Shown piece by piece: positions 5,944 through 36,104 of a stretch of 36,104 nt of DNA. The position numbers were made by a program, and so were the translations under genes. The notes beneath the pieces were generated by a model, which was given only the letters and a program-made list of their open reading frames with translations, did not search any database and had not been told where the DNA came from. Within the stretch, counting starts at the first letter, position 1, and the number at the start of each line of letters is the position of its first letter. This DNA comes from a virus: IMG/VR virus record IMGVR_UViG_3300031414_000061, positions 1 through 36,104 of that record. One strand, given 5' to 3'.

Positions 5944-6513
5944 ATGAAGAACTTCCTGCGCCTTTCCGGAGGTCTTGACGTCACCCGCCTGCTGCTGGCC
6001 ATCCAGCGCCGGCCCGAGTTGTGGAGGGAAGACACCTATTTGCGCGACTACCCGCAGGGCCCATTCGCCGCGATCGAGTCGATCATGCTGCGCTTCCCGG
6101 TCAAGACCGTGCACGAAACCGAAGAGGCGCTGCAGCAGCACCTGGCCACCTACGACCAGCACGAAAACGTGGACTATCCGGCCTACAAGCTGCTGCCCGA
6201 GGCGCGCCCGCTGGTGATGGACCTGATGACCTACGTGGGCGGCGAACGCCTGGGCCGGGTGATGATCAACAAGATCGCCCCGGGCGGCGTGATCTACCCG
6301 CACCGCGACACCGCAGCGCATGCCGAGTACTACGACCGCTTCCACATCGTCCTGCAGAGCAAGCCGGGCGTGGTCTTCCGCGCCGGTGATGAGCAGGTCT
6401 ACATGGCGCCGGGTGAGGTCTGGTGGTTCGACAACAGCGAAGAACATGAAGTGATCAATAACAGCGCCGAGGACCGCATCCACATGATTGTCGATATTCG
6501 GACGTCGAAATGA
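5944..6513 (+). CDS. Fe(II)/2-oxoglutarate dioxygenase, aspartyl/asparaginyl beta-hydroxylase (AspH/LpxO) family
   Basis: The core RVMINKIAPGGVIYPHRDTAAHAEYYDRFHIVLQSKPGVVFRAGDEQVYMAPGEVWWFDNSEEHEVINNSAEDRIHMIVD matches the family signature l.pG..I.pH.D...R.H..L....lrvG.e...w.eGe...FDds..HeV.N.s...R.hli.D. Confidence 0.8.
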   Translation: MKNFLRLSGGLDVTRLLLAIQRRPELWREDTYLRDYPQGPFAAIESIMLRFPVKTVHETEEALQQHLATYDQHENVDYPAYKLLPEARPLVMDLMTYVGGERLGRVMINKIAPGGVIYPHRDTAAHAEYYDRFHIVLQSKPGVVFRAGDEQVYMAPGEVWWFDNSEEHEVINNSAEDRIHMIVDIRTSK

Positions 6514-6965
6514 TCACCTGTCACGTCGAATCGTTCGAAGAGCGCCTGGACGAATTGAAGGCGCTGCTGCCGCTGCACTACCGGGAACTGGCCCTGAACC
6601 AGGACAAGGTGCCGCTGTCGCCGATCTACGCCCACTACATCGACCGCGAGCATGCCGGCGGCCTGCTGTTTGTCACCCTGCGCGACGCCGGCCAGCTGGT
6701 CGGCTACTTCATCGGCTTCATCGCCCCGGGCCTGCACTACAGCACCTGCCTGACCTGCACGATGGACATTTTCTACGTGCACCCGGACAAGCGCACCGGC
6801 AGCGCTGGCGTGCGCATGTTCCGCTTCGTAGAAACCGAATTGAAGCGCCGCGGCGTGCAGCGCTGGTTCATGGGTTCGAAGATCCAGGCCGACGCCAGCG
6901 CCCTATTCAAGAGGATCGGCGCCCAGCCGGTCGAAACCTATTACAGCAAGTGGATCGGAGGATAA
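6510..6965 (+). CDS. GNAT-family N-acetyltransferase-like protein
   Basis: The start overlaps the upstream stop (ATGA, 6510-6513). FYVHPDKRTGSAGVRMFRFVETELKRRGVQRWFMGSK...ALFKRIGAQ resembles GNAT motif A (beta4-alpha3) followed by a C-terminal beta/alpha segment. Confidence 0.65.
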   Translation: MITCHVESFEERLDELKALLPLHYRELALNQDKVPLSPIYAHYIDREHAGGLLFVTLRDAGQLVGYFIGFIAPGLHYSTCLTCTMDIFYVHPDKRTGSAGVRMFRFVETELKRRGVQRWFMGSKIQADASALFKRIGAQPVETYYSKWIGG

Positions 6966-7675: not shown

Positions 7676-9091
7676 ATGCCGCAACCACTCGTAGCACTTC
7701 AGACCACGGCGCCGCAGTTCGAAGACCCGGTGACCCTGCAGACCAAGGCCTACAGCCTGCGCGACCTGGCCGCGAAGGCGCAGGCCGCCGACCAGTCGCG
7801 CACCGATGACCAGGCCGCGCGCGCCGCCTTCGCTGCCAACCCGACCGACGCCGCTGCCCGCCTGAACGCGCTGGCCGGCGTGTCGCCGAAGGCCTACGGC
7901 GACGAAGCGAAGCGCCAGGCGGATCTGGCCAAGGCTGACGCCGAAACCCGCGCCAAGACGATCGAAACGGCCCACAAGCAGATCGACCTGGCTGGCCAGG
8001 CCTTCGGCTACGTGCGCCAGTTCCCGACCAAGGAAAACGCGGTCGCCGCGGTGAAATGGCTGGGCCAGAATGGCGTGCTGACGCCTGATCACGTCGCCGA
8101 CCACCTGGCCAAGATCGACACCGCGACGCCCGAACAGATCCAGGGCCTGGCCACGCAGGCATTCCAGTCGGCGGTGGCCGCAAAAGATCAGCTGATGAAG
8201 ATCGAGACCAAGGACACCGGCGGCAACGTGCAGACCGTCGGCACCGACCCGATCACCGGCAAGACCACCACGCTGTCGACCCTGGCCAAGACCCAGAGCC
8301 CGGACAACAGGGCCACGAACGACCGGATCGCCGCCGAGGGCACCGCCAACCGTGCCACGCAGATCCAGGTGCAAAAGATGATCGGCGAGCGCCAGGACAG
8401 CAAGGGCGACGCCGAAGCATCCCTGGACGGCGACACGCTGGGCATGATGGCAAAGCAGTACCTGCGCGGAGACAAGAGCGTGCTGCAGAACCTGGGCCGC
8501 GGCGCGCAAGGCTCGGCGAACCTGGTGGCGCTGCGCAAGGCGATCACTACCGAAGCGAAGACCCAAGGCCTGGGCGGCGAAGACATTGCCGCGCGCATGG
8601 CCGACTTCCAGGGCCAGACCGCCGGCCTGCGCACCGCCAACACGATCAGCGCACGCATCGAGAATGCCGCCGCCGAGGCCGCCCAGCTGGCGCCGCTGGC
8701 GCTGTCCGCGTCCGAAAAGGTGGTGCGGTCGGGCTTCCTGCCGTTCGGCCGTGCGCAGGTGATGTTCAACAACCAGACCAACGACCCGGCCCTGAACGAG
8801 TTTGCGACCGCGAACATCGGCCTGGCCACCGCCTACGCTGGCGCGATGGCGCGCGGCGGCAAGGCCACCGTGTCGGACAACGAACACGCCCGCGAACTGC
8901 TGTCTACCGCGAAGAGCCACGAAGCCTACAAGGCGATCGTGAACCAGATGCTGCAGGAGATCGCCGCCGCCCAGCGCGCGCCGAAACAGGTGCGGGAAGG
9001 CCTGCGCGGTGAGGTCAGCGGCAAGGGCGGCGACCATGGCGCGCCGCCAGCTGGTGCCGGCAAGGTGGTCGACTTCGGGAGCCTCAAATAA
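7676..9091 (+). CDS. Putative internal virion / ejection protein (alpha-helical)
   Basis: 471-aa ORF, Ala/Gln/Lys-rich and helical, in the virion operon. Its stop overlaps the next start (TAATG at 9089-9093). Confidence 0.55.
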   Translation: MPQPLVALQTTAPQFEDPVTLQTKAYSLRDLAAKAQAADQSRTDDQAARAAFAANPTDAAARLNALAGVSPKAYGDEAKRQADLAKADAETRAKTIETAHKQIDLAGQAFGYVRQFPTKENAVAAVKWLGQNGVLTPDHVADHLAKIDTATPEQIQGLATQAFQSAVAAKDQLMKIETKDTGGNVQTVGTDPITGKTTTLSTLAKTQSPDNRATNDRIAAEGTANRATQIQVQKMIGERQDSKGDAEASLDGDTLGMMAKQYLRGDKSVLQNLGRGAQGSANLVALRKAITTEAKTQGLGGEDIAARMADFQGQTAGLRTANTISARIENAAAEAAQLAPLALSASEKVVRSGFLPFGRAQVMFNNQTNDPALNEFATANIGLATAYAGAMARGGKATVSDNEHARELLSTAKSHEAYKAIVNQMLQEIAAAQRAPKQVREGLRGEVSGKGGDHGAPPAGAGKVVDFGSLK

Positions 9092-16950: not shown

Positions 16951-17796
16951 TCAGGACGGCACCAGGCTTTCCGCAATGGTCGGCAGCGGTCCCATGTAGG
17001 TCAACCCCTCTTTCACGCAATGACGAATGAACGCATCTTCATGCAGTTCGCCGGGCCGCATGTTCATGCTACAGCCGACCGTGCCGCCCTTCCAGGAACC
17101 TTTACGCGGCCCGACCTCTGCGGAATAGTCGATCGCCAGGCTGCGCTTCACCAGCGACCGATAGAACAGGCTGAGCCAGCTGCACCACTTTTCCCCTCGC
17201 TTCCACTCGCGTTCCTCGATGTGCGTGGTCGCGATGATCTCGGCGCCATCGTAGTCGATGCACCGGAAAACGACCTTGGGAACGTCCTGTTTCGCCTTGT
17301 ACTGCGCGTCGAAGGAATCAATGCCCTTGCCGCGTTCGCGGTCCAGCTGGGTCCAGAAGTGCGCGCCGGCCGTGTCGTACATGCTGATGCGGATGAAGCG
17401 CCATTGCGTCCAGGGCAGATGGGTCGACCAGCTTTTCGTGGTGCTGCTGTCCATGGTTTGCGGTCCCTTGAACACCTGCAGGAAGCCGTCGCTGCAGGAA
17501 AAGCCGTAGCAACGATGGTGCACGTCCCAGTAACCATCCCCGGCTTTGCTCCACTCATAGCGCGACGTGTCGACCCAGCGGCGCCAGGGCGCCAGCAGGC
17601 CGGGCGCCTCGATGATCAGCACGCCGAAGTGCAGGTGGATCCGCACATGGGCGGTGTCTTCTTCGTCGCCGGAATCCAGCACGATCCCCACCGGCTTCCA
17701 GCTGTCGCTGGCGGCGCTCCATGTGAACGGCCCGAAGTGGCGATCGTGCCCACTCCACCGGCGGCGCTTCCCCTTCAGCCATGTCTTGATGCTCAT
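16951..17796 (-). CDS. Hypothetical Trp-rich protein (orphan), last gene of the leftward operon
   Basis: 281-aa ORF. Its start overlaps the upstream ORF stop (ATGA). RBS aaaggga. Many W/H/C residues (WDVHHRCYGFSCSDG, GSWKGGTVGCS). I recognise no family. Confidence 0.8.
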   Translation of the reverse strand: MSIKTWLKGKRRRWSGHDRHFGPFTWSAASDSWKPVGIVLDSGDEEDTAHVRIHLHFGVLIIEAPGLLAPWRRWVDTSRYEWSKAGDGYWDVHHRCYGFSCSDGFLQVFKGPQTMDSSTTKSWSTHLPWTQWRFIRISMYDTAGAHFWTQLDRERGKGIDSFDAQYKAKQDVPKVVFRCIDYDGAEIIATTHIEEREWKRGEKWCSWLSLFYRSLVKRSLAIDYSAEVGPRKGSWKGGTVGCSMNMRPGELHEDAFIRHCVKEGLTYMGPLPTIAESLVPS

Positions 17797-18091: not shown

Positions 18092-18534
18092 GTCGGGCCA
18101 CCTATTTTCAACAGGCCAGCCGCTTCGGTATGCTCGGCCACCGTCTGGCCAGTCGGCAGCAGGATCTGGCCCAAGAATGCACCTTCAAAGCTGACCAGCC
18201 CGACTTCCACCGCCGTGACCTGTCCCTTGATCCAGTCGCGCAGGATGCTGCATGCGCTGACCTCGGCCTGCTCGAGCGCGCGCCGTTCGTGCTGGGTCTT
18301 TGTCGCCTTGATGCGCGGCCCGTAGGGATGCTCTTTCAGCCAGGCCGCCGCATAACCGCGCACGCTGGCCTTCACGCTCACATCGCGCCCGCGTGCCGTG
18401 AACTGCACAATGAGTTCGCCGGCTTCGCTGTCGGTCATGGTGCCGAACCTGGTGCAGCCGAAGCGCTTCAGCACCTTACCAATTTCTTCTAGGGCGCCGG
18501 CCCCGCTGGTGGCGTTCTCGTAGGGTAGGCTCAT
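18088..18534 (-). CDS. Hypothetical protein (148 aa)
   Basis: The real start is MSLPYENATS at 18534, ATGA-coupled to the upstream gene. The Arg-rich 98-aa N-terminal extension in the track looks spurious. Confidence 0.8.
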   Translation of the reverse strand: MSLPYENATSGAGALEEIGKVLKRFGCTRFGTMTDSEAGELIVQFTARGRDVSVKASVRGYAAAWLKEHPYGPRIKATKTQHERRALEQAEVSACSILRDWIKGQVTAVEVGLVSFEGAFLGQILLPTGQTVAEHTEAAGLLKIGGPT

Positions 18535-19469
18535 GTCGGGTCTTCCTTTGTCGGCACCGCATAGTCCTGATACAGCGCATCGCGCTGCAGCTTCGGCGGG
18601 AAGGCGGCCAGCTCGGCATAGTGGCGCTGGGCTTCCTTGCTCAATTCGACGTGTTCGGTGCTGCCGTCGGTGTTCACCTGGAATGCGCCGGTGCCGTGCT
18701 GGATCGCATCGGACAGGGCCGCGTCGACCGCATCGGGCGCCGGTGCGGTCAGCCGCGCGCCAACCAGTTCGGTGATCACGCTTTGGAGCTCGGCGGCGTC
18801 GCCGGTGGCGCCCAGATCTTCGGCCCACTCGCGATTCTTCAGCATCGCAACCATGACGCGCACCTGTTCGCGGAACTTGTACAGCTGGTCATACTTTGCA
18901 AACAGGCGGGCGACGTCGCGCAGCGGCACGGTGTCATAGTCCGGATGGATCGTGTCGCCTTCCTTCCAGTAGCCAAACGATGCGGTGCCGATCGCCGCCA
19001 TTTGCAGGCGGTATTGTTCGCTGTCGTCCAGCTTTGGCTTGCCGAACTTGGCCACCAGGTCGGCGGCCAGCGCTGGGTGCGTTTCGCTGCATGCCGAAGC
19101 ATAGGCCCGCATCGCTGCCGGCGCGTGCCTATCGTGGTCCAGGTCCAGCACGAAGTAGGCGCAACCGTGATGTTTTTCGCCCGGCGCGTCTTTCCCATCG
19201 GTGCGCATCACAATGAACTTGTTAAACAGGCCCTGTTCCTCTGCTGGTTTGTTCGGGTCGCGGTCAGGGAAGACCCTGGCGCCGGTCGGCAGCGCGCACA
19301 CGTCGATGCGCTCGTATTCGGCCGACTGATTCGGCCAGGTGCTGCCCAGCGGCCCGATCAGGCCCATGGTCGGGCCGGTCAGCAGCAGGGTCCAGCGGTC
19401 ATTCCAGCGCAGGGGCGTCTTCGGGGCTTGGTGGTCGGTGCGGCGGTTTTTCGGTTCGTCCATGGTCAT
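18531..19469 (-). CDS. Hypothetical protein (312 aa)
   Basis: Contains FIVMRTDGKDAPGEKHHGCAYFVLDLDHDRHAPAAMRAYASAC, a motif I have seen in many uncharacterised phage proteins. The start may be the second ATG (19463), given the position of the GAGG. Confidence 0.8.
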   Translation of the reverse strand: MTMDEPKNRRTDHQAPKTPLRWNDRWTLLLTGPTMGLIGPLGSTWPNQSAEYERIDVCALPTGARVFPDRDPNKPAEEQGLFNKFIVMRTDGKDAPGEKHHGCAYFVLDLDHDRHAPAAMRAYASACSETHPALAADLVAKFGKPKLDDSEQYRLQMAAIGTASFGYWKEGDTIHPDYDTVPLRDVARLFAKYDQLYKFREQVRVMVAMLKNREWAEDLGATGDAAELQSVITELVGARLTAPAPDAVDAALSDAIQHGTGAFQVNTDGSTEHVELSKEAQRHYAELAAFPPKLQRDALYQDYAVPTKEDPT

Positions 19470-27747: not shown

Positions 27748-28232
27748 ACAAGAATGTGATCCTGGTGCTGGACTATCCGGTGTCGGCCAACGTGTATTGG
27801 CGCACGCGCGTGATTCCAGCAGCGCCTGGCCGCCCCGCCATGGCGATGACCTACGTTTCCCCAGAGGCCAAGCAATACCAGAAGAAGGTGCTGGCCGCCG
27901 CGCGCGCTGCCGGCGTGGCCGCGCCGATGGAAGGGCGGATCCAGATCGACGTGCGCCTGTACCCGAACCGGCCGCAGGACTGGCAGACCCGCCAGCGCAA
28001 GCTGGGCGCGAGCTGGGACGACGGCGTGCGCTGCATCGACCTGGACAACGCGAACAAGGTGCTGCTGGATTCGCTGAAGGGCGTCGTGTTTGTGGATGAC
28101 AACTGGCAGGTGCGCCGGCTGATCGCCGAGCGCATGGAGCCCGACGAGCATGGCGCCCGGGTGGTGGTGCGCGTGCTGGCGCTCGAGATCAAGCAGCCGC
28201 AGCTTGCGCTGCTGGCCGAAGGTGAAGCGTGA
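27744..28232 (+). CDS. rusA: RusA Holliday-junction resolvase
   Basis: LDYPVSANVYWR...RIQIDVRLYP...RCIDLDNANKVLLDSLKGVVFVDDNWQVRRL is the RusA signature (D.DN..K...D.L.g....DD..v). ATGA coupling to the upstream gene. Confidence 0.9.
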   Translation: MNKNVILVLDYPVSANVYWRTRVIPAAPGRPAMAMTYVSPEAKQYQKKVLAAARAAGVAAPMEGRIQIDVRLYPNRPQDWQTRQRKLGASWDDGVRCIDLDNANKVLLDSLKGVVFVDDNWQVRRLIAERMEPDEHGARVVVRVLALEIKQPQLALLAEGEA

Positions 28233-29083
28233 AGGCGCCGACGCGCCCGGTTCTGCGCTATCACGGCGGGAAATTCCGCCTTGCACCGTGGATCCTTTCG
28301 TTTTTCCCGGCCCACCGGATTTACTGCGAGCCGTTCGGCGGTGCCGCATCGGTTTTGCTGCTGAAGGAACGCAGCTATGCCGAGATTTACAACGACCTGG
28401 ATAATGAAGTAGTGAACCTGTTTCGGGTGCTGCGCGATCCTGCCAGCGCGGAGCAGCTGACCACGGCGATTTACCTTACCCCATTCGCTCGAGAAGAATT
28501 CCGCGCGTCCTATGGCGAGACCAGCGACCCGATCGAAATGGCCAGGCGGACGATCACCAGGTCATTCATGGGGTTTGGAACGACCACCTTGCGGCATAAC
28601 CGCACTGGCTTCCGCGCGAAGGCAAACCGACAGAACCAGCCGGCCCAGATGGACTGGACCAAGTATCCGGAACATGTAGCCAGCTTCACCGAGCGTTTGC
28701 GCGGCGTGGTTATCGAACACCGTGATGCCCTTGAGATCATCGCGCAGCAGGACGGCCCAGAGACCCTGTTCTATGTGGATCCGCCGTATCCGCATGTGAC
28801 GCGAACGGCGATCAAAAGCCACAACGATACCGCCTATAAGCATGAAATGACGGATGCCGACCACCGTGCACTGGCGGACGTGCTGCGCAGCTGCCGCGGC
28901 ATGGTGGTGCTGTCTGGCTACCCCTGCGACCTGTATGACCTTGAACTTTTCAGCAGCTGGCAGCGCTTTGAACGGGCCGCCCTGGCTGATGGTGCCCGCG
29001 AACGGACGGAAGTTGTCTGGTTGAACCAGGCATGTGTGGCCGCGCTCGAGCAGCAGCCCGAACAACAAAGGATGTTTGCATGA
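28229..29083 (+). CDS. dam: DNA adenine methyltransferase, Dam / D12 class (alpha architecture)
   Basis: LRYHGGKFRLAPWILSFFPAHRIYCEPFGGAASVLL (motif I region) and LFYVDPPY (motif IV). The GTG start overlaps the rusA stop (GTGA). Confidence 0.85.
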   Translation: MKAPTRPVLRYHGGKFRLAPWILSFFPAHRIYCEPFGGAASVLLLKERSYAEIYNDLDNEVVNLFRVLRDPASAEQLTTAIYLTPFAREEFRASYGETSDPIEMARRTITRSFMGFGTTTLRHNRTGFRAKANRQNQPAQMDWTKYPEHVASFTERLRGVVIEHRDALEIIAQQDGPETLFYVDPPYPHVTRTAIKSHNDTAYKHEMTDADHRALADVLRSCRGMVVLSGYPCDLYDLELFSSWQRFERAALADGARERTEVVWLNQACVAALEQQPEQQRMFA

Positions 29084-30051
29084 GTACCAGAATCGTAAAA
29101 ATCGGGCCCGCCACCCTGTACTGCGGCGACGCCCTGGAAATCATCCCGACCCTGCCGAAGGTCGACGCAGTCATCACCGACCCGCCCTACGGCGTGCTGG
29201 ATGAAGAATGGGACGCCATGACATTCCGCGAGCTGGCGCGCTTCACCATGGGCTGGGTCTCGCAGGTGCGCGCGAAGTCGGACGTGCTGGTGTCGTTCTT
29301 CGCCGTCGACACCCGGGCCGCGCTGGACCCGCTGCTGCAGATGGTCTATGAGGACGTGCGCCAGCTGGTCTGGAACAAGGGCGGCGGCCGCGTCGCCGAC
29401 GGCGGCCTGTTCTACTCGTTCGAACCGATCTACCTGTGCCAGCCGCCGACGAAGTGGGAAGTGGTCGAGCCGAAGACGCTGGCAGTCGCCCAGCTGATCG
29501 CCAGCGCCCGCGAGCGCGCCGGGCTGTCGCGTGGTGCCGTCGACATGCAGGTACGAGGGAAGAAAACCGGCCTGTGCTACCGCTGGGAAGAGGCGGCATG
29601 CCTGCCCACGCTCGAGCAGGCGCACAAGCTGCGCCAGATCCTGCCGCTGGGCGTCGACTTCGACCAGGCCTACGTGGCCGCGCTGCTGGCACGCGACCAG
29701 GTGATGGCCAGCGCCCGCGCCAAGACGTCGGAGAACGCTGCGCGCGGCCTGGACGTGTTCACCTACCCGCCAACGCAGGGCGGACCCGACCGCCACCCCA
29801 CCGAGAAGCCGCTGGCGCTGATGGGCGACCTGGTGCAGGTGGTCACCGACCCGGGCCAGGTGGTTCTGGATCCGTTCATGGGCCGCGGCACCACCGGCGT
29901 CGCATGCGTCCAGCTGGGCCGCCCGTTCTACGGTATCGAGCGCGACCCGGGCCACTTCGATAACGCCTGCAGGCGCATCGAACAGGCGGTGGCGCAGGGC
30001 CAGCTGTTCGCGCCCGAGCAATCGAAACAAGTACAGGAATCGCTGTTATGA
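29080..30051 (+). CDS. Second DNA methyltransferase, N6_N4_Mtase family (beta architecture) with a central insertion
   Basis: AVITDPPYG near the N-terminus (motif IV). HPTEKPLALMGDLVQVVTDPGQVVLDPFMGRGTTGVAC near the C-terminus (motif I). The ~90-aa insert contains an HTH-like stretch LIASARERAGLSRGAVDMQV. Start ATG 29080 is ATGA-coupled. Confidence 0.85.
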   Translation: MSTRIVKIGPATLYCGDALEIIPTLPKVDAVITDPPYGVLDEEWDAMTFRELARFTMGWVSQVRAKSDVLVSFFAVDTRAALDPLLQMVYEDVRQLVWNKGGGRVADGGLFYSFEPIYLCQPPTKWEVVEPKTLAVAQLIASARERAGLSRGAVDMQVRGKKTGLCYRWEEAACLPTLEQAHKLRQILPLGVDFDQAYVAALLARDQVMASARAKTSENAARGLDVFTYPPTQGGPDRHPTEKPLALMGDLVQVVTDPGQVVLDPFMGRGTTGVACVQLGRPFYGIERDPGHFDNACRRIEQAVAQGQLFAPEQSKQVQESLL

Positions 30052-30492: not shown

Positions 30493-31326
30493 ATGAGCAT
30501 TACTTTGATGACGCTGGCATGGAAGTCAGATTTTCAATCGGGTCGGAAGATGGTGCTGCTGGCGCTGTGCGACAACGCGAGCGACGAAGGCGTGTGCTAC
30601 CCGGGCATCCCGACGCTGGCTAGGAAATGCAGCATGGGGGAGCGCACCATTCAGGGCCACATCGCCGACCTGGAAAAGCTGGGCATTGTGCGCCGTGAAT
30701 TCCGGACTGGCCGCAGCACGCTGTACCAGATCGACGGCAGCAAAATCTGCCCCCCGCAGATTCTGCACCACCCCCCCGCAGTTTTCGCACCACCCCCCCC
30801 GCAGGATCTGCACCCCCCCCCCGCAGATCTCGCACCCATAACCACCACTGAATCATCAGATGAACCACCAGATAACCCAACCCCTGGGAAAACGGCGAAA
30901 AAGCATCATGGAACTGATGACGACTACAAGGCGGCGAAGTGGATGTTCGACCTGGTGCGCAAGGTGAACCCGACCGCTCGAGCGGCGAACTTCGACGTGT
31001 GGGCCAACGAAATCCGCTTGATGCGCGAGATCGACGGCCGCACGCATGCCGAAGTGTGCGAGCTGTTCCTGTGGGCTAAAAAGGATTCCTTCTGGTGCGC
31101 GAATATCCAGTCGCCGGCCAAGCTGCGCGAGAAGTGGAACACGCTGGCCGAGCGCATGCAGCGCAACCCGCTGACCCCGAAGCCTGGCGCCCCTGCTGGC
31201 CAGCCTTCCGCCGCCAGGTCGGTCGCCGAGCAGAACGCGGCCAACAGCGCCGAGGCGAAGCGCCTGCTGTTCGGCACCCCGGCCCCTGCCGATGAAGTCG
31301 ATAATGGAGTACTTGAAAATGCGTGA
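30493..31326 (+). CDS. Replication initiator / replisome organiser (winged-helix N-domain, DnaD/O-like C-domain)
   Basis: The N-terminus KMVLLALCDNASDEGVCYPGIPTLARKCSMGERTIQGHIADLEKLGIVRRE is a typical HTH_36-type phage replication protein. A Pro-rich linker is encoded by the iterons. The C-terminus is DYKAAKWMFDLVRKVNP...WANEIRLMREIDGRT..EVCELFLWAKKDSFWCANIQSPAKLREKW. Confidence 0.75.
   Translation: MSITLMTLAWKSDFQSGRKMVLLALCDNASDEGVCYPGIPTLARKCSMGERTIQGHIADLEKLGIVRREFRTGRSTLYQIDGSKICPPQILHHPPAVFAPPPPQDLHPPPADLAPITTTESSDEPPDNPTPGKTAKKHHGTDDDYKAAKWMFDLVRKVNPTARAANFDVWANEIRLMREIDGRTHAEVCELFLWAKKDSFWCANIQSPAKLREKWNTLAERMQRNPLTPKPGAPAGQPSAARSVAEQNAANSAEAKRLLFGTPAPADEVDNGVLENA
30744..30837. repeat. 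Iteron array (candidate replication origin) inside the initiator gene
   Basis: Four units at 22-23 bp spacing: GCAGATTCTGCACCA-C7 (30756), GCAGTTTTCGCACCA-C8 (30778), GCAGGATCTGCA-C10 (30801) and GCAGATCTCGCACCC (30823). A half unit ATCTGC-C6 precedes them. Each unit has a GCAGA.TCTGC dyad. An AT-richer stretch follows at 30838-30930. Confidence 0.7.
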
Positions 31327-32131
31327 GAACGACTTTGACGAATTCTCGCAGCTGCTGGACGCTGCCTTCGACATTCTGGGGAAGACGCCGGCCGCCAAGG
31401 TGGTCAGCCCGACCGCCAAGGCCCTGTTCTTCCAGGCGCTGGCCGAGTATCCCCTGCCGCTGGTGCGCGCGGCGATCGGTGCGCACGTCAAGCGCGGCAA
31501 GTTCACGCCCACGCCCGGCGATATCGTGGATCACATCGAGGCCAGCACCAACGGCGACGGCCGCCCCGGGCCGGAAGAGGCCTGGGCGATCGCGCTGGCC
31601 AGCCAGGACGAGCGCGACACGGTGGTGTGGACGTCGGAGACCGCGCAGGCCTGGACGGTGGCGCGCCCGGTGATGGAGACCAGCGGCCCGATCAGCGCCC
31701 GCAAGACCTTCACCGAGACTTACACGCGCCTGATCGCTGCCGCGCGTGCCCAGCGCCGCCCGGTGGCGTGGTCGGCCCACCTGGGCTGGGACAAGGCCAT
31801 GCAGGCGCAGGTGCTGCAGCGCGCCACCGAGCAGGGCCTGCTGCCGGCGCCCAGCGTGGCCGGCCTGCTGCCGCCGCCAGAAGTGCCAGATTCGGAACTT
31901 TCCCCCGAGGGTCGCGCGCAGCTGGCCAAGGTAAAGCAGATGCTGGCCGACAGCGCCGCCGAACGGGAAAGCCGGCTGCAGGCCAAGGTGGACGCCCGCA
32001 ACGAGACCGAGGCCGAGTTCAAGCGCAACCTGAACCAGCGCGTGGCCGAGTACCAGCGGTTCGCCAAGCTGGCCGACCAGGTGCAGGTGACCCGGGCCGA
32101 GGGCGAGCGCGCGCAGCCGGCGGTGGAATGA
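31319..32131 (+). CDS. Putative replication protein (lambda P-like helicase loader?)
   Basis: I chose start 31319 (GGAG 9 nt upstream). HVKRGKFTPTPGDIVDHI resembles lambda P RRQNRPFLPSPGQFVAW. It lies directly after the initiator. The C-terminal third is a coiled coil. Confidence 0.7.
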   Translation: MRENDFDEFSQLLDAAFDILGKTPAAKVVSPTAKALFFQALAEYPLPLVRAAIGAHVKRGKFTPTPGDIVDHIEASTNGDGRPGPEEAWAIALASQDERDTVVWTSETAQAWTVARPVMETSGPISARKTFTETYTRLIAAARAQRRPVAWSAHLGWDKAMQAQVLQRATEQGLLPAPSVAGLLPPPEVPDSELSPEGRAQLAKVKQMLADSAAERESRLQAKVDARNETEAEFKRNLNQRVAEYQRFAKLADQVQVTRAEGERAQPAVE

Positions 32132-32865
32132 AGCAGTTTTTTGTGGGGATGCATCAGCCGTCCGATGCCAAGCACGTCGACTTCCCCTTCATCAGCGTGA
32201 ACCGGCTACGCCCGCGCAAGGCGCCGTTCGCTGTCCGGTCCTGGATCATGGACAGCGGCGCCTTCACCCAGATCATGAAGCACGGCGGCTACACCGAGGG
32301 CGTCGAGGTCTACGCCGCCGAGATCAAGCGGTGGGCCAAGAACGGGCAGCTGCTGGCCGCGGTGGCGCAGGATTACATGTGCGAGGCCCACATGCTCGAG
32401 CGCACCGGCCTGACGATCGAGGAACACCAGCGCCTGACGGTCGAGCGCTACGACGCCCTGGTGGCTTGCGACACCGGCGGCGTCTACATCATGCCGGTGC
32501 TGCAGGGCTATTCGCCGGCCGACTACGTGCGGCACATCGACATGTATGGCGACCGCCTGGCGCCCGGCATGTGGGTCGGTGTCGGGTCGGTCTGTAAGCG
32601 CAACGGCGACCCGCGCGCGATCGAGGCGGTGCTGTGGACGATCAAGCAGCGCCGGCCCGACCTGCGCCTGCATGGCTTCGGGCTGAAGGCGACCGCGTTT
32701 TCGTCGTCCCTGGTGCTGGAACTGCTGCACACCGCCGACAGCATGGCATGGAGCTACGCCGCGCGCCGAGAGGGCCGCAACCAAAACGACTGGCGAGAGG
32801 CGCAGGCCTACGTCGACCGAATCAACAGCAGGCCGCTGCAGTACGGCCTGCACTTGGAGAACTGA
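32128..32865 (+). CDS. DpdA-like DNA transglycosylase (tRNA-guanine transglycosylase superfamily)
   Basis: MKQFFVGMHQP...FISVNRL....WIMDSGAFTQ...AVAQDYMCE...TIEEHQRLTVERY..IMPVLQGYSPADY...GVGSVCKR...LRLHGFGLK...LHTADSMAWSYAAR matches the DpdA pattern I recall (F.G.H.P....lFvS.rrl...WalDSGgFtE...pqDwmCE...eHq..Tv.ny...ipVlQG...dY...GlGSvCrR...lHgFGvK...ADSmAWS..AR). ATGA coupling to the upstream gene. Confidence 0.65.
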   Translation: MKQFFVGMHQPSDAKHVDFPFISVNRLRPRKAPFAVRSWIMDSGAFTQIMKHGGYTEGVEVYAAEIKRWAKNGQLLAAVAQDYMCEAHMLERTGLTIEEHQRLTVERYDALVACDTGGVYIMPVLQGYSPADYVRHIDMYGDRLAPGMWVGVGSVCKRNGDPRAIEAVLWTIKQRRPDLRLHGFGLKATAFSSSLVLELLHTADSMAWSYAARREGRNQNDWREAQAYVDRINSRPLQYGLHLEN

Positions 32866-32868
32866 AGA

Positions 32869-33066
32869 ATGACCAAACAGCACCACCGCGCCATCCTGAC
32901 CGCTGACCAGGTGCGCCAGATGCGCGCCGCCCACGTCCCCGGCAAGGTCGGATATGAAACCCTGGCCGCCAGCTTTGGCTGCGGCATATCGACCGCCCGC
33001 GATATCTGCACCTACCGGACCCGCCGCGACGTCCAAGAGCTACCACCACCACAAGAGGGAACCTGA
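32869..33066 (+). CDS. Small HTH protein (65 aa), candidate late-gene regulator by position
   Basis: GYETLAASFGCGISTARDICTYRT is HTH-like. It is the last sizeable gene before the terminator and late promoter. Confidence 0.65.
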   Translation: MTKQHHRAILTADQVRQMRAAHVPGKVGYETLAASFGCGISTARDICTYRTRRDVQELPPPQEGT

Positions 33067-33456: not shown

Positions 33457-33897
33457 ATGGGACGCAAGACGACATACACGGAAAAGGCCGCAAGCGAGAT
33501 CTGCCGCCGCATTGCTGAAGGTCAGCCACTGCGCCAGATCTGCCGTGATGACCACATGCCCGCATGGCAAACCGTTTATGGATGGATCGAGGCCCGGCCG
33601 CCGTTTGCCGAACGCATCGCGCGTGCGCGCGAGCTGGGCTTCGACGCCATTGCCGAAGAGGCGCTCGAGATCGCCGACACGCCGCAGATCGGCGAGACCG
33701 AGGAAACCAGCGAGGACGGCAAAAAGATCAAGCGCGAGGACATGCTGGGCCACCGGAAGCTGCAGGTTGAGACCCGGCTAAAACTGCTGTCCAAGTGGGC
33801 GCCGAAGAAGTACGGCGAGTCGATCCGCCAGGAGCTGACCGGCGCGAACGGCGGCCCGATCCAGATGCAATTCAGCGCGACGGACGCCGACCTGTGA
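33457..33897 (+). CDS. Terminase small subunit
   Basis: MGRKTTYTEKAASEICRRIAEGQPLRQICRDDHMPAWQTVYGWIEARPPFAERIARARELGFDAIAEEALEIAD...HRKLQVETRLKLLSKWAPKKYG is the classic HTH-type TerS pattern. AGGGGA RBS. Confidence 0.85.
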   Translation: MGRKTTYTEKAASEICRRIAEGQPLRQICRDDHMPAWQTVYGWIEARPPFAERIARARELGFDAIAEEALEIADTPQIGETEETSEDGKKIKREDMLGHRKLQVETRLKLLSKWAPKKYGESIRQELTGANGGPIQMQFSATDADL

Positions 33898-35728: not shown

Positions 35729-36104
35729 AACGAACAGCTGGACCGACAGCGACCTGCTGAAGCGCATTCGCACGTTCACCGATACGGCGATCAAGGGCGA
35801 CAACGAAAACCGCCTGAACGCCGTGGCCGACCTGAAGTTTCTGGCCGGCGACCAGTGGGACGAGCAGATCAAGCGCCAGCGCATGCTTGAGGGCCGGCCG
35901 TGCCTGACCTTCAACCGCCTGCCGACCTACCTGCACCAGGTTACGAACGACCAGCGCCAGAACAAGGTAGGCATCAAGGTGCACCCGGTCGGCCACGGCG
36001 CCGACGATGAGGGCGCCGAGCTTTACCAGGGCATGATTCGCCAGATCGAGAACGGCAGCAACGCCGACACCGCCTACGACACCGCCGTGAACAGCGCCGC
36101 GGCC
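35718..36104 (+). CDS. Portal protein, N-terminal part; continues at 128..1858 after circular closure
   Basis: ATG at 35718 is the first start after an in-frame TGA at 35673. Translation is MGNKTNSWTDSDLLKRIRTFTDTAIKGDNENRLNAVADLKFLAGDQWDEQIKRQRMLEGRPCLTFNRLPTYLHQVTNDQRQNKVGIKVHPVG. The motif DLKFxxGxQWD...R...GRPxLTxNxL...V.N is a P22-like portal N-terminus. The frame joins ORF 2..1858 exactly. This ORF is absent from the track because it runs off the window end. Confidence 0.85.
   Translation, partial: MGNKTNSWTDSDLLKRIRTFTDTAIKGDNENRLNAVADLKFLAGDQWDEQIKRQRMLEGRPCLTFNRLPTYLHQVTNDQRQNKVGIKVHPVGHGADDEGAELYQGMIRQIENGSNADTAYDTAVNSAAA
35978..36104. repeat. Terminal direct repeat, copy 2 (identical to 1..127)
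   Basis: Same 127-nt string as the window start. Unit genome length is therefore 35,977 bp. Confidence 0.95.

Follow-up and report, generated by a model that had tools for sequence, protein, structure and literature searches.

The question raised by this stretch of viral DNA is whether a phage that carries a gene for a DpdA-like protein, a relative of the tRNA-guanine transglycosylases (TGTs), and none of the genes for making a 7-deazaguanine base could nevertheless put such a base into its DNA. The stretch, called the window from here on, is the whole of positions 1 to 36,104 of IMG/VR virus record IMGVR_UViG_3300031414_000061 (36,104 nucleotides), and the gene, dpdA-like, lies at 32128-32865 on the plus strand (738 bp; 245 codons and a stop codon). 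The original prediction had picked out nine motifs of its product as typical of DpdA, namely, FFVGMHQP, FISVNRL, WIMDSGAFTQ, QDYMCE, EEHQRLTVERY, PVLQGYSPADY, GVGSVCKR, LHGFGLK, and ADSMAWSYAAR, and the translation contains all nine. Within the TGT superfamily the protein falls in the DpdA branch, of which it is a minimal, TIM-barrel-only (245-aa) form, and it is annotated here as a putative DNA guanine transglycosylase of the DpdA family (PF23859) that belongs to a short, Zn-less clade of singleton DpdAs. The explanation that we favor, with a confidence somewhat better than even, is that the protein is a post-replicative DNA guanine transglycosylase which uses 7-cyano-7-deazaguanine (preQ0) or a near relative, made by the host or salvaged, and which works in an anti-restriction set with two DNA methyltransferases.

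The assignment to the DpdA/TGT superfamily was borne out by family profiles and by the predicted structure. The protein matches the Pfam family PF23859, named DpdA, with 147.3 bits and E=6.2e-43 (residues 2-215 against positions 3-224 of the 291 in the profile), which passes the gathering threshold of 27 bits, and it matches PHROG 1279 with E=4e-69. An AlphaFold2 model, built with 67 homologues as input, had a predicted local distance difference test score (pLDDT) of 93.6 and a predicted TM-score (pTM) of 0.90. When this model was compared with the PDB by Foldseek, the 50 best matches were all TGTs or the DpdA structure 7ui4 ('DNA preQ0 insertase DpdA'), with a probability of 1.00 and query TM-scores (TMq) of 0.49-0.60; the top matches had TMq of 0.57-0.60, and that of 7ui4 was 0.57. 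The best match among viral structures was the DpdA-like protein of Mycobacterium phage Bella96 (TMq 0.85). As modeled, the protein has the TGT-type (beta/alpha)8 barrel fold. Searches of the PDB by sequence, with the single protein as well as with a profile of the 67 sequences, found no TGT or DpdA and thus it was only the comparison of structures that linked the protein to them. NCBIfam had no matching model.

The residues expected at the active site are conserved. Among 67 members of the clade D42-S43-G44-x-F46, Q81-D82, Q126-G127, G151/G153, H182-G183-F184-G185, and D204-S205 are invariant. The first of these motifs, which reads D42-S43-G44-A45-F46 in the window protein, is kept in CAjan gp35, Rosebush gp2, Orion gp20, Larva gp86, and phiLM21 gp25, and a larger set, D42-S-G-x-F46, G127, G153, R158, H182, G185, D204-S205, and W208, is shared without change by CAjan gp35 and Rosebush gp2 and is likewise invariant in the 67 clade members. 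In the DpdA of S. Montevideo (SmDpdA), the active-site residues are Asp95, the general acid/base, Phe99, and Asp256, the nucleophile, and the D95A and D256A mutations abolish activity (PMC10164549). The counterparts of Asp95, Phe99, and Asp256 in the window protein are D42, F46, and D204, respectively, and the presumed nucleophile also corresponds to Asp280 of ZmTGT. D204 is assigned to this role by motif and alignment and not by superposition in three dimensions: D204-S205...W208 is invariant in the clade and aligns with the D-S-x-x-W of the CAjan and Rosebush DpdAs. For the aspartate that recognizes the base (Asp130 in SmDpdA and Asp156 in ZmTGT), the candidate is in the clade-invariant Q81-D82, just past a predicted strand at 74-79, where the MAFFT alignment to the validated phage enzymes of the DpdA1 type is ambiguous. 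Beyond the TIM-barrel, TGT-like fold and these catalytic counterparts, the two proteins differ a good deal. SmDpdA (7ui4; PMC10164549) is only 13% identical to the window protein, is 413 aa long, has a 128-residue Ins8 with a structural Zn, and needs the ParB-like ATPase DpdB, whereas the window protein stops 41 residues past the nucleophile and no ParB-like protein was found in the genome.

The Zn site is absent from the window protein. It has three Cys in all (residues 85, 114, and 156), none of which lies past D204, and a tail without Cys is found in 101 of 139 clade members. In contrast, a C-x5-HC-x2-C knuckle follows the nucleophile in the DpdAs of Orion and Larva, and it has been lost in the proteobacterial branch that holds the window protein and phiLM21 gp25. 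The functional DpdA of CAjan is also without the Cys cluster, and therefore a phage DpdA does not need the Zn site for activity and its loss is no bar for the window protein. These missing parts bear on the possibility that the target is tRNA, that is, that the protein is a phage TGT which alters the wobble modification of host or phage tRNA as the database name 'queuine tRNA-ribosyltransferase' implies. PHROG 1279 and many GenBank records bear this tRNA-enzyme name, and the protein shares with the TGTs (bacterial, archaeal, and eukaryotic QTRT1), its top structural matches, both the fold and the architecture for double-displacement catalysis. However, it is only 12-16% identical to TGTs, the TGT profile PF01702 gave no match to it at E<=1, and it has neither the N-terminal lid nor the Zn subdomain nor the C-terminal region that holds the anticodon stem-loop in TGTs. 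Its context is one of DNA modification, and DpdA proteins of this clade are fused to or adjoin DNA methyltransferases. We consider a tRNA target very unlikely. ARAGORN had called a tRNA-Asn(GUU), a queuosine-substrate tRNA that might have spoken for it, at 8776-8842 on the minus strand. This call was rejected as a false positive because Rfam recognizes no tRNA there, with the gathering score or with a cutoff as loose as E<=10, and because the call is antisense in a strongly coding structural gene (7676-9091).

Whether the phage could make the base itself can be answered from its gene content since the genome is complete, which makes the absence of genes meaningful and testable. Bases 1-127 are exactly the same as bases 35978-36104, a direct terminal repeat of 127 bp, and the gene for a P22-type portal spans the junction. 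Thus, the window represents an entire phage genome, circularly closed (circular or permuted), of ~35,977 bp. Genes were called with a model based on the GC content of third codon positions (GC3), and about 57 genes and gap open reading frames (ORFs) were scanned against Pfam and some of them against PHROGs. The Pfam scans found no GTP cyclohydrolase I, QueD/PTPS, QueE radical-SAM protein, QueC, QueF, glutamine amidotransferase, ParB/DpdB, or YhhQ. A six-frame phmmer search of the window with the QueC, QueD, QueE, FolE, YhhQ, and ParB-like proteins of Rosebush and CAjan found nothing, under conditions where the control proteins of the two phages detected each other (1e-25 for QueC, 1e-15 for QueE, and 1e-26 for FolE). 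The QueD controls failed in that the Rosebush and CAjan QueD proteins miss each other in pairwise phmmer, and so the absence of QueD from the window is that given by the Pfam scan. Of the partners of bacterial DpdA, neither DpdB, the ParB-like ATPase, nor dpdC-K was found by Pfam among the called genes, and the ParB-like gp1 of Rosebush matches nothing in the window. The earlier claim that the genome is without FolE, QueD, QueE, QueC, and amidotransferase homologues therefore holds. While the DpdA1 genes are within folE-queD-queC-queE clusters (gp2-gp6 in Rosebush and gp35-gp45 in CAjan), dpdA of the window stands alone in a complete genome, outside any folE-queD-queE-queC cluster with or without an amidotransferase gene. 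With a DpdA homologue and zero pathway genes, the window fits the definition of a DpdA-only phage.

The situation of a lone DpdA is not new, and the window phage joins a published category. Phages with DpdA and without homologues for the biosynthesis of G+ or preQ0 make up group 3 of Hutinet et al. (2019), which has 76 phages, phiLM21 among them, and is the largest of their groups; the explanation that such phages use preQ0 of the host, or take it up, was already proposed there (PMC6884629). The same authors found that the singleton DpdAs fall in similarity clusters of their own and that their function has possibly diverged (PMC6884629). Two recent preprints that name DpdA contain nothing on solo DpdAs.

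The next point is which DpdA the window protein is. It resembles the singleton DpdAs gp20 of Mycobacterium phage Orion and gp25 of Sinorhizobium phage phiLM21 in family, in short size (245-294 aa), in the catalytic motifs, and in the lack of FolE, QueD, QueE, and QueC, and it is 58% identical to phiLM21 gp25, 39% identical along its whole length to Orion gp20 (E=2e-40), and about 42% identical to proteins of cluster K mycobacteriophages. With PF23859, Larva gp86 scores 567 bits and Orion gp20 465 bits. The DpdA1 enzymes, gp35 of Escherichia phage CAjan, gp2 of Mycobacterium phage Rosebush, and the DpdA of Enterobacteria phage 9g, have been linked by experiment to 2'-deoxy-preQ0 (dPreQ0) or 2'-deoxyarchaeosine (dG+) in DNA: deletion of dpdA in CAjan abolishes dPreQ0, and 28% of G in Rosebush is replaced by dPreQ0 (PMC6884629). 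They are of the same superfamily as the window protein and in the alignment agree with it fully in the motifs D-S-G-x-F, G-x-G, H-G/A-F/W-G, and D-S-x-x-W. However, they are only 20-26% identical to it and are longer (306-385 aa) with long C-terminal tails. By BLAST, phmmer, and hhalign the window protein is outside the DpdA1 sequence cluster.

How the favored enzyme could obtain its base is suggested by work on other DpdAs and by the loci related to the one in the window. The 9g DpdA and the nt-1 DpdA2, when present alone in E. coli, put preQ0 of the host into the DNA of plasmids, an insertion that a queD deletion strain no longer shows (PMC6884629, PMC10516641). We surveyed 149 loci related to that of the window, 79 of which have at least 5 kb on each side, with 2.1 Mb of flanking DNA in total; dereplication left 113. 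There is no QueC, QueE, or FolE in the 149 loci, and the negative for QueD there is weak because phmmer is insensitive to it. In 11 loci a gene for a YhhQ/Vut_1 protein (PF02592) abuts dpdA of the singleton clade on the same strand, and all 11 of the 11 YhhQ-like ORFs that were found adjoin dpdA; the five that were checked all pass the Vut_1 gathering score in Pfam. These loci are L001 (15033-15560, which is phiLM21 gp26), L030, L032, L053, L073, L089, L104, L136, L144, L145, and L148. They span Proteobacteria, Bacteroidota, and Chloroflexota, and the DpdAs beside YhhQ share 42-70% identity with the window protein. In the supplementary table of Hutinet et al., the phiLM21 protein YP_009221496 has an entry, and its neighbor YP_009221497 is given beside it in a further column for a transporter (PMC6884629). 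YhhQ is the preQ0 transporter in E. coli (PMC5372724). The original prediction had held that, if the enzyme modifies DNA, it would have to draw on host precursors, and the YhhQ genes next to dpdA give this supply of precursors support at the level of the family.

That the substrate is DNA is supported by the methyltransferases. In two clusters at 50% identity DpdA is fused to a DNA methyltransferase, of the N6_N4 family in P0126 (550 aa) and of the D12 family in P0133 (559 aa), and these are both of the families that are encoded upstream of dpdA in the window. Two other long members, P0186 (530 aa) and P0198 (432 aa), have extra regions without a Pfam match. Of the neighbors of dpdA in the 113 dereplicated loci, the most frequent were DnaB, found 11 times, a YhhQ-like protein 10 times, the N6_N4 methyltransferase 8 times, and the Dam-like methyltransferase, RusA, and DUF5131 6 times each. 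The contexts are mosaic and no partner gene beside dpdA is conserved in all 113 neighborhoods. In the contig of a sibling phage whose DpdA is 87% identical, dpdA has the same position and the Dam-like methyltransferase is replaced by a C5 methylase. In a prophage of Paraburkholderia diazotrophica (L003/L004, 7893-13863), the genes around dpdA code for a PAPS_reduct-family protein (PF01507), which is of the PP-loop ATPase superfamily like QueC, for a C5 DNA methylase, and for DUF5131, and here dpdA may be part of a larger DNA-modification module. Taken with the linkage to YhhQ, the methyltransferase fusions favor DNA modification with a salvaged or host 7-deazaguanine.

We therefore propose the following course of events. 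The dpdA gene would be expressed from the rightward early/replication operon and the enzyme would act on double-stranded phage DNA after replication, where a subset of the guanines would be replaced by a 7-deazaguanine base, of which preQ0 is the most probable. This base would not be made by the phage and would come from the pool of queuosine precursors of the host or from salvaged precursors. The exchange would be a double displacement in which D204 as the nucleophile forms a covalent enzyme-DNA intermediate, D42 serves as the general acid/base, and F46 is a gate that stacks on the base. Together with the action of the two DNA methyltransferases of the operon, the modification would protect the phage DNA from restriction.

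Several results weigh against this proposal. No member of the singleton clade is shown to modify DNA. The sole phage of the clade that has been analyzed, Orion, has no dPreQ0, 2'-deoxy-7-amido-7-deazaguanosine (dADG), dG+, 2'-deoxy-preQ1 (dPreQ1), or 2'-deoxyqueuosine (dQ) in its DNA (PMC6884629). The singleton Salmonella phage 7-11, which is from a different cluster, has about 0.02% dADG (PMC6884629), and with so little the modification may be very sparse. The relation to the validated enzymes is remote: Rosebush gp2 is 26% identical over 156 aa (BLAST E=3e-4), phmmer against the DpdA1 proteins gave no reciprocal matches at E<=1e-3, and hhalign of the clade profile, which is shallow (Neff 1.8), against CAjan gp35 gave a probability of 42% with only the HGFG...DS..W region aligned. 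PF23859 itself misses the validated DpdA1 proteins CAjan gp35 (L011, 28848-29768) and Rosebush gp2 (L008, 789-1946) at E<=1. Since it finds the singletons and misses DpdA1, the family named 'DpdA' in the databases is the singleton clade and annotations with this name mostly mark that clade. In addition, the window protein is without the structural Zn site and the large insertion at the C terminus (Ins8) that make contacts with the nucleic acid in TGT and in bacterial DpdA, no YhhQ transporter gene was found in the window by Pfam or by six-frame phmmer whereas one adjoins dpdA in phiLM21, and the availability of preQ0 in the host is assumed.

The Orion result is expected and not decisive because its host, M. 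smegmatis, makes no preQ0 (PMC6884629), unlike the host of the window phage, which is presumably a preQ0-making proteobacterium. Orion gp20 (L009, 15866-16642) and Larva gp86 (L010, 5995-6879) keep every catalytic motif in spite of this host, and about 400 mycobacteriophages carry intact copies of the singleton DpdA. This conservation in a host without the preQ0 pathway, along with Orion DNA that is free of the five modifications screened for, would fit a singleton clade that has diverged, that is, an enzyme for base exchange or a glycosylase with a substrate other than preQ0 (preQ1, 7-carboxy-7-deazaguanine (CDG), queuine, or a purine analogue that was not screened for), or one with a role on DNA other than anti-restriction. 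Hutinet et al. explicitly left the divergence of the singletons undecided (PMC6884629), the DpdA2 enzymes are promiscuous and insert preQ1, preQ0, and CDG (PMC10516641), and the clade is a sequence family apart from DpdA1 and without the Zn subdomain. Nevertheless, we consider such divergence somewhat unlikely: the linkage to YhhQ indicates 7-deazaguanine precursors specifically, the active-site motifs in common with the preQ0-inserting enzymes are intact, and no other gene that could supply a substrate recurs beside dpdA in the 113 dereplicated neighborhoods. We also find it unlikely that the short, Zn-less clade is not a preQ0 insertase and inserts a different, unscreened base or acts on DNA by another reaction, of the base-exchange or glycosylase kind, which would explain both the conservation in the mycobacteriophages and the Orion DNA that looks unmodified. 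If it is true, the window enzyme marks a new type of DNA modification.

The low value for phage 7-11 raises another alternative, namely, that the enzyme is competent and nearly idle, modifying DNA in traces when precursors happen to be available, and that dpdA is a marginal accessory gene. Phage 7-11 and Orion, with traces of dADG and none, respectively, are both DpdA-only (PMC6884629), and Rhodoferax phage P26218, the closest cultured structural relative of the window phage, has no homologue among the tblastn matches, which suggests that dpdA is dispensable for this type of phage. The strong conservation of the gene counts against this and we regard an idle enzyme as quite unlikely. The 67 homologues, which are 67-88% identical, have about 70 invariant positions in common, the family is large with 1,777 clusters at 50% identity at E<=1e-3 (1,091 at E<=1e-10 and 214 at E<=1e-30), the codon composition is native, and the position of the gene is kept in the sibling phage. 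At 90% identity the clade has more than 6,499 clusters (best E=1.9e-163). It is found in phages and prophages of Paraburkholderia, Azospirillum, Sphingomonas, Rubrivivax, Hydrogenophaga, rhizobia, cyanobacteria, Chloroflexota, Verrucomicrobiota, and others.

The dpdA ORF is a real gene with a composition native to the genome: its GC content is 66.1% and its GC3 91%, and the means for the genes of the genome are 65.7% and 85.7% (GC3 0.857 +/- 0.039). In agreement with the original prediction, it stands where the rightward replication/early operon ends and is translationally coupled to the gene before it. The order of genes in this arm is DUF1367, YbcO, RusA, a D12-class (Dam-like) N6-adenine DNA methyltransferase (28229-29083, plus strand), an N6_N4 DNA methyltransferase (29080-30051, plus strand), an unassigned gene, an O-like replication initiation protein with HTH_36 (30493-31326, plus strand; PHROG 391, E=5e-61), a gene of PHROG 6028 (31292-32131, plus strand), and dpdA, which closes the replication block that the O-like gene marks. 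The start of dpdA overlaps the stop codon of the PHROG 6028 gene in ATGA (...GTG GAA TGA / ATG AAG CAG), and so the coupling that had been described is real. The description of this upstream gene as P-like did not stand beyond its position: it is in the place of a helicase loader after the O-like gene, there is no homology behind such a role, and it has no Pfam match and matches only PHROG 6028, whose function is unassigned. Directly downstream of dpdA is a candidate gene, an ORF of 65 aa without a family match (32869-33066, plus strand), inside a gap of 590 bp before the gene for the terminase small subunit (33457-33897).

In the rest of the genome, the structural and lysis genes code for a P22-like portal and coat, an Sf6-type small terminase, the large terminase, tail proteins, holin, and endolysin. 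Between the head and tail genes are an Asp/Arg beta-hydroxylase-type cupin (5944-6513, plus strand; PF05118, E=2e-18) and a GNAT acetyltransferase (6510-6965, plus strand), which may modify virion proteins. The leftward early arm has RecT, a PD-(D/E)XK exonuclease, an SbcC/SMC-like ATPase, an HNH endonuclease, and a homologue of the CBASS inhibitor Acb3, which is full-length (16951-17796, minus strand; PF25187, E=4.7e-64, 217 bits), and also a 312-aa protein (18531-19469, minus strand) similar to PHROG 9572, 'sulfatase-modifying factor enzyme' (E=9e-24). Thus an anti-CBASS gene accompanies the DNA-modification genes of the window, and in the related locus L005 Tad3 is near dpdA. The Pfam scan of the whole window found no integrase, excisionase, or CI-type repressor, unlike many relatives with a singleton-clade dpdA, which are integrated prophages. 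In size and portal the window phage resembles the lytic Rhodoferax phage P26218. When all of the window was compared by megablast with 50,697 phage records, the only match was one of 250 nt in the portal gene of that phage, at 75% nucleotide identity.

The meaning of these results reaches beyond one phage. Pfam and NCBI use the name 'DpdA' for the singleton clade, of which no member has been shown to modify DNA, and the validated enzymes are in a different sequence family. The singleton clade is very common in phages and prophages of proteobacteria, cyanobacteria, and actinobacteria, and thousands of annotations hang on what its function is. The adjacency to YhhQ and the methyltransferase fusions give a clear prediction for experiment. 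If the explanation favored here is true, a DNA hypermodification that evades restriction would come from a single 738-bp gene by way of the host pool of queuosine precursors, and this would be the cheapest known route to 7-deazaguanine DNA.

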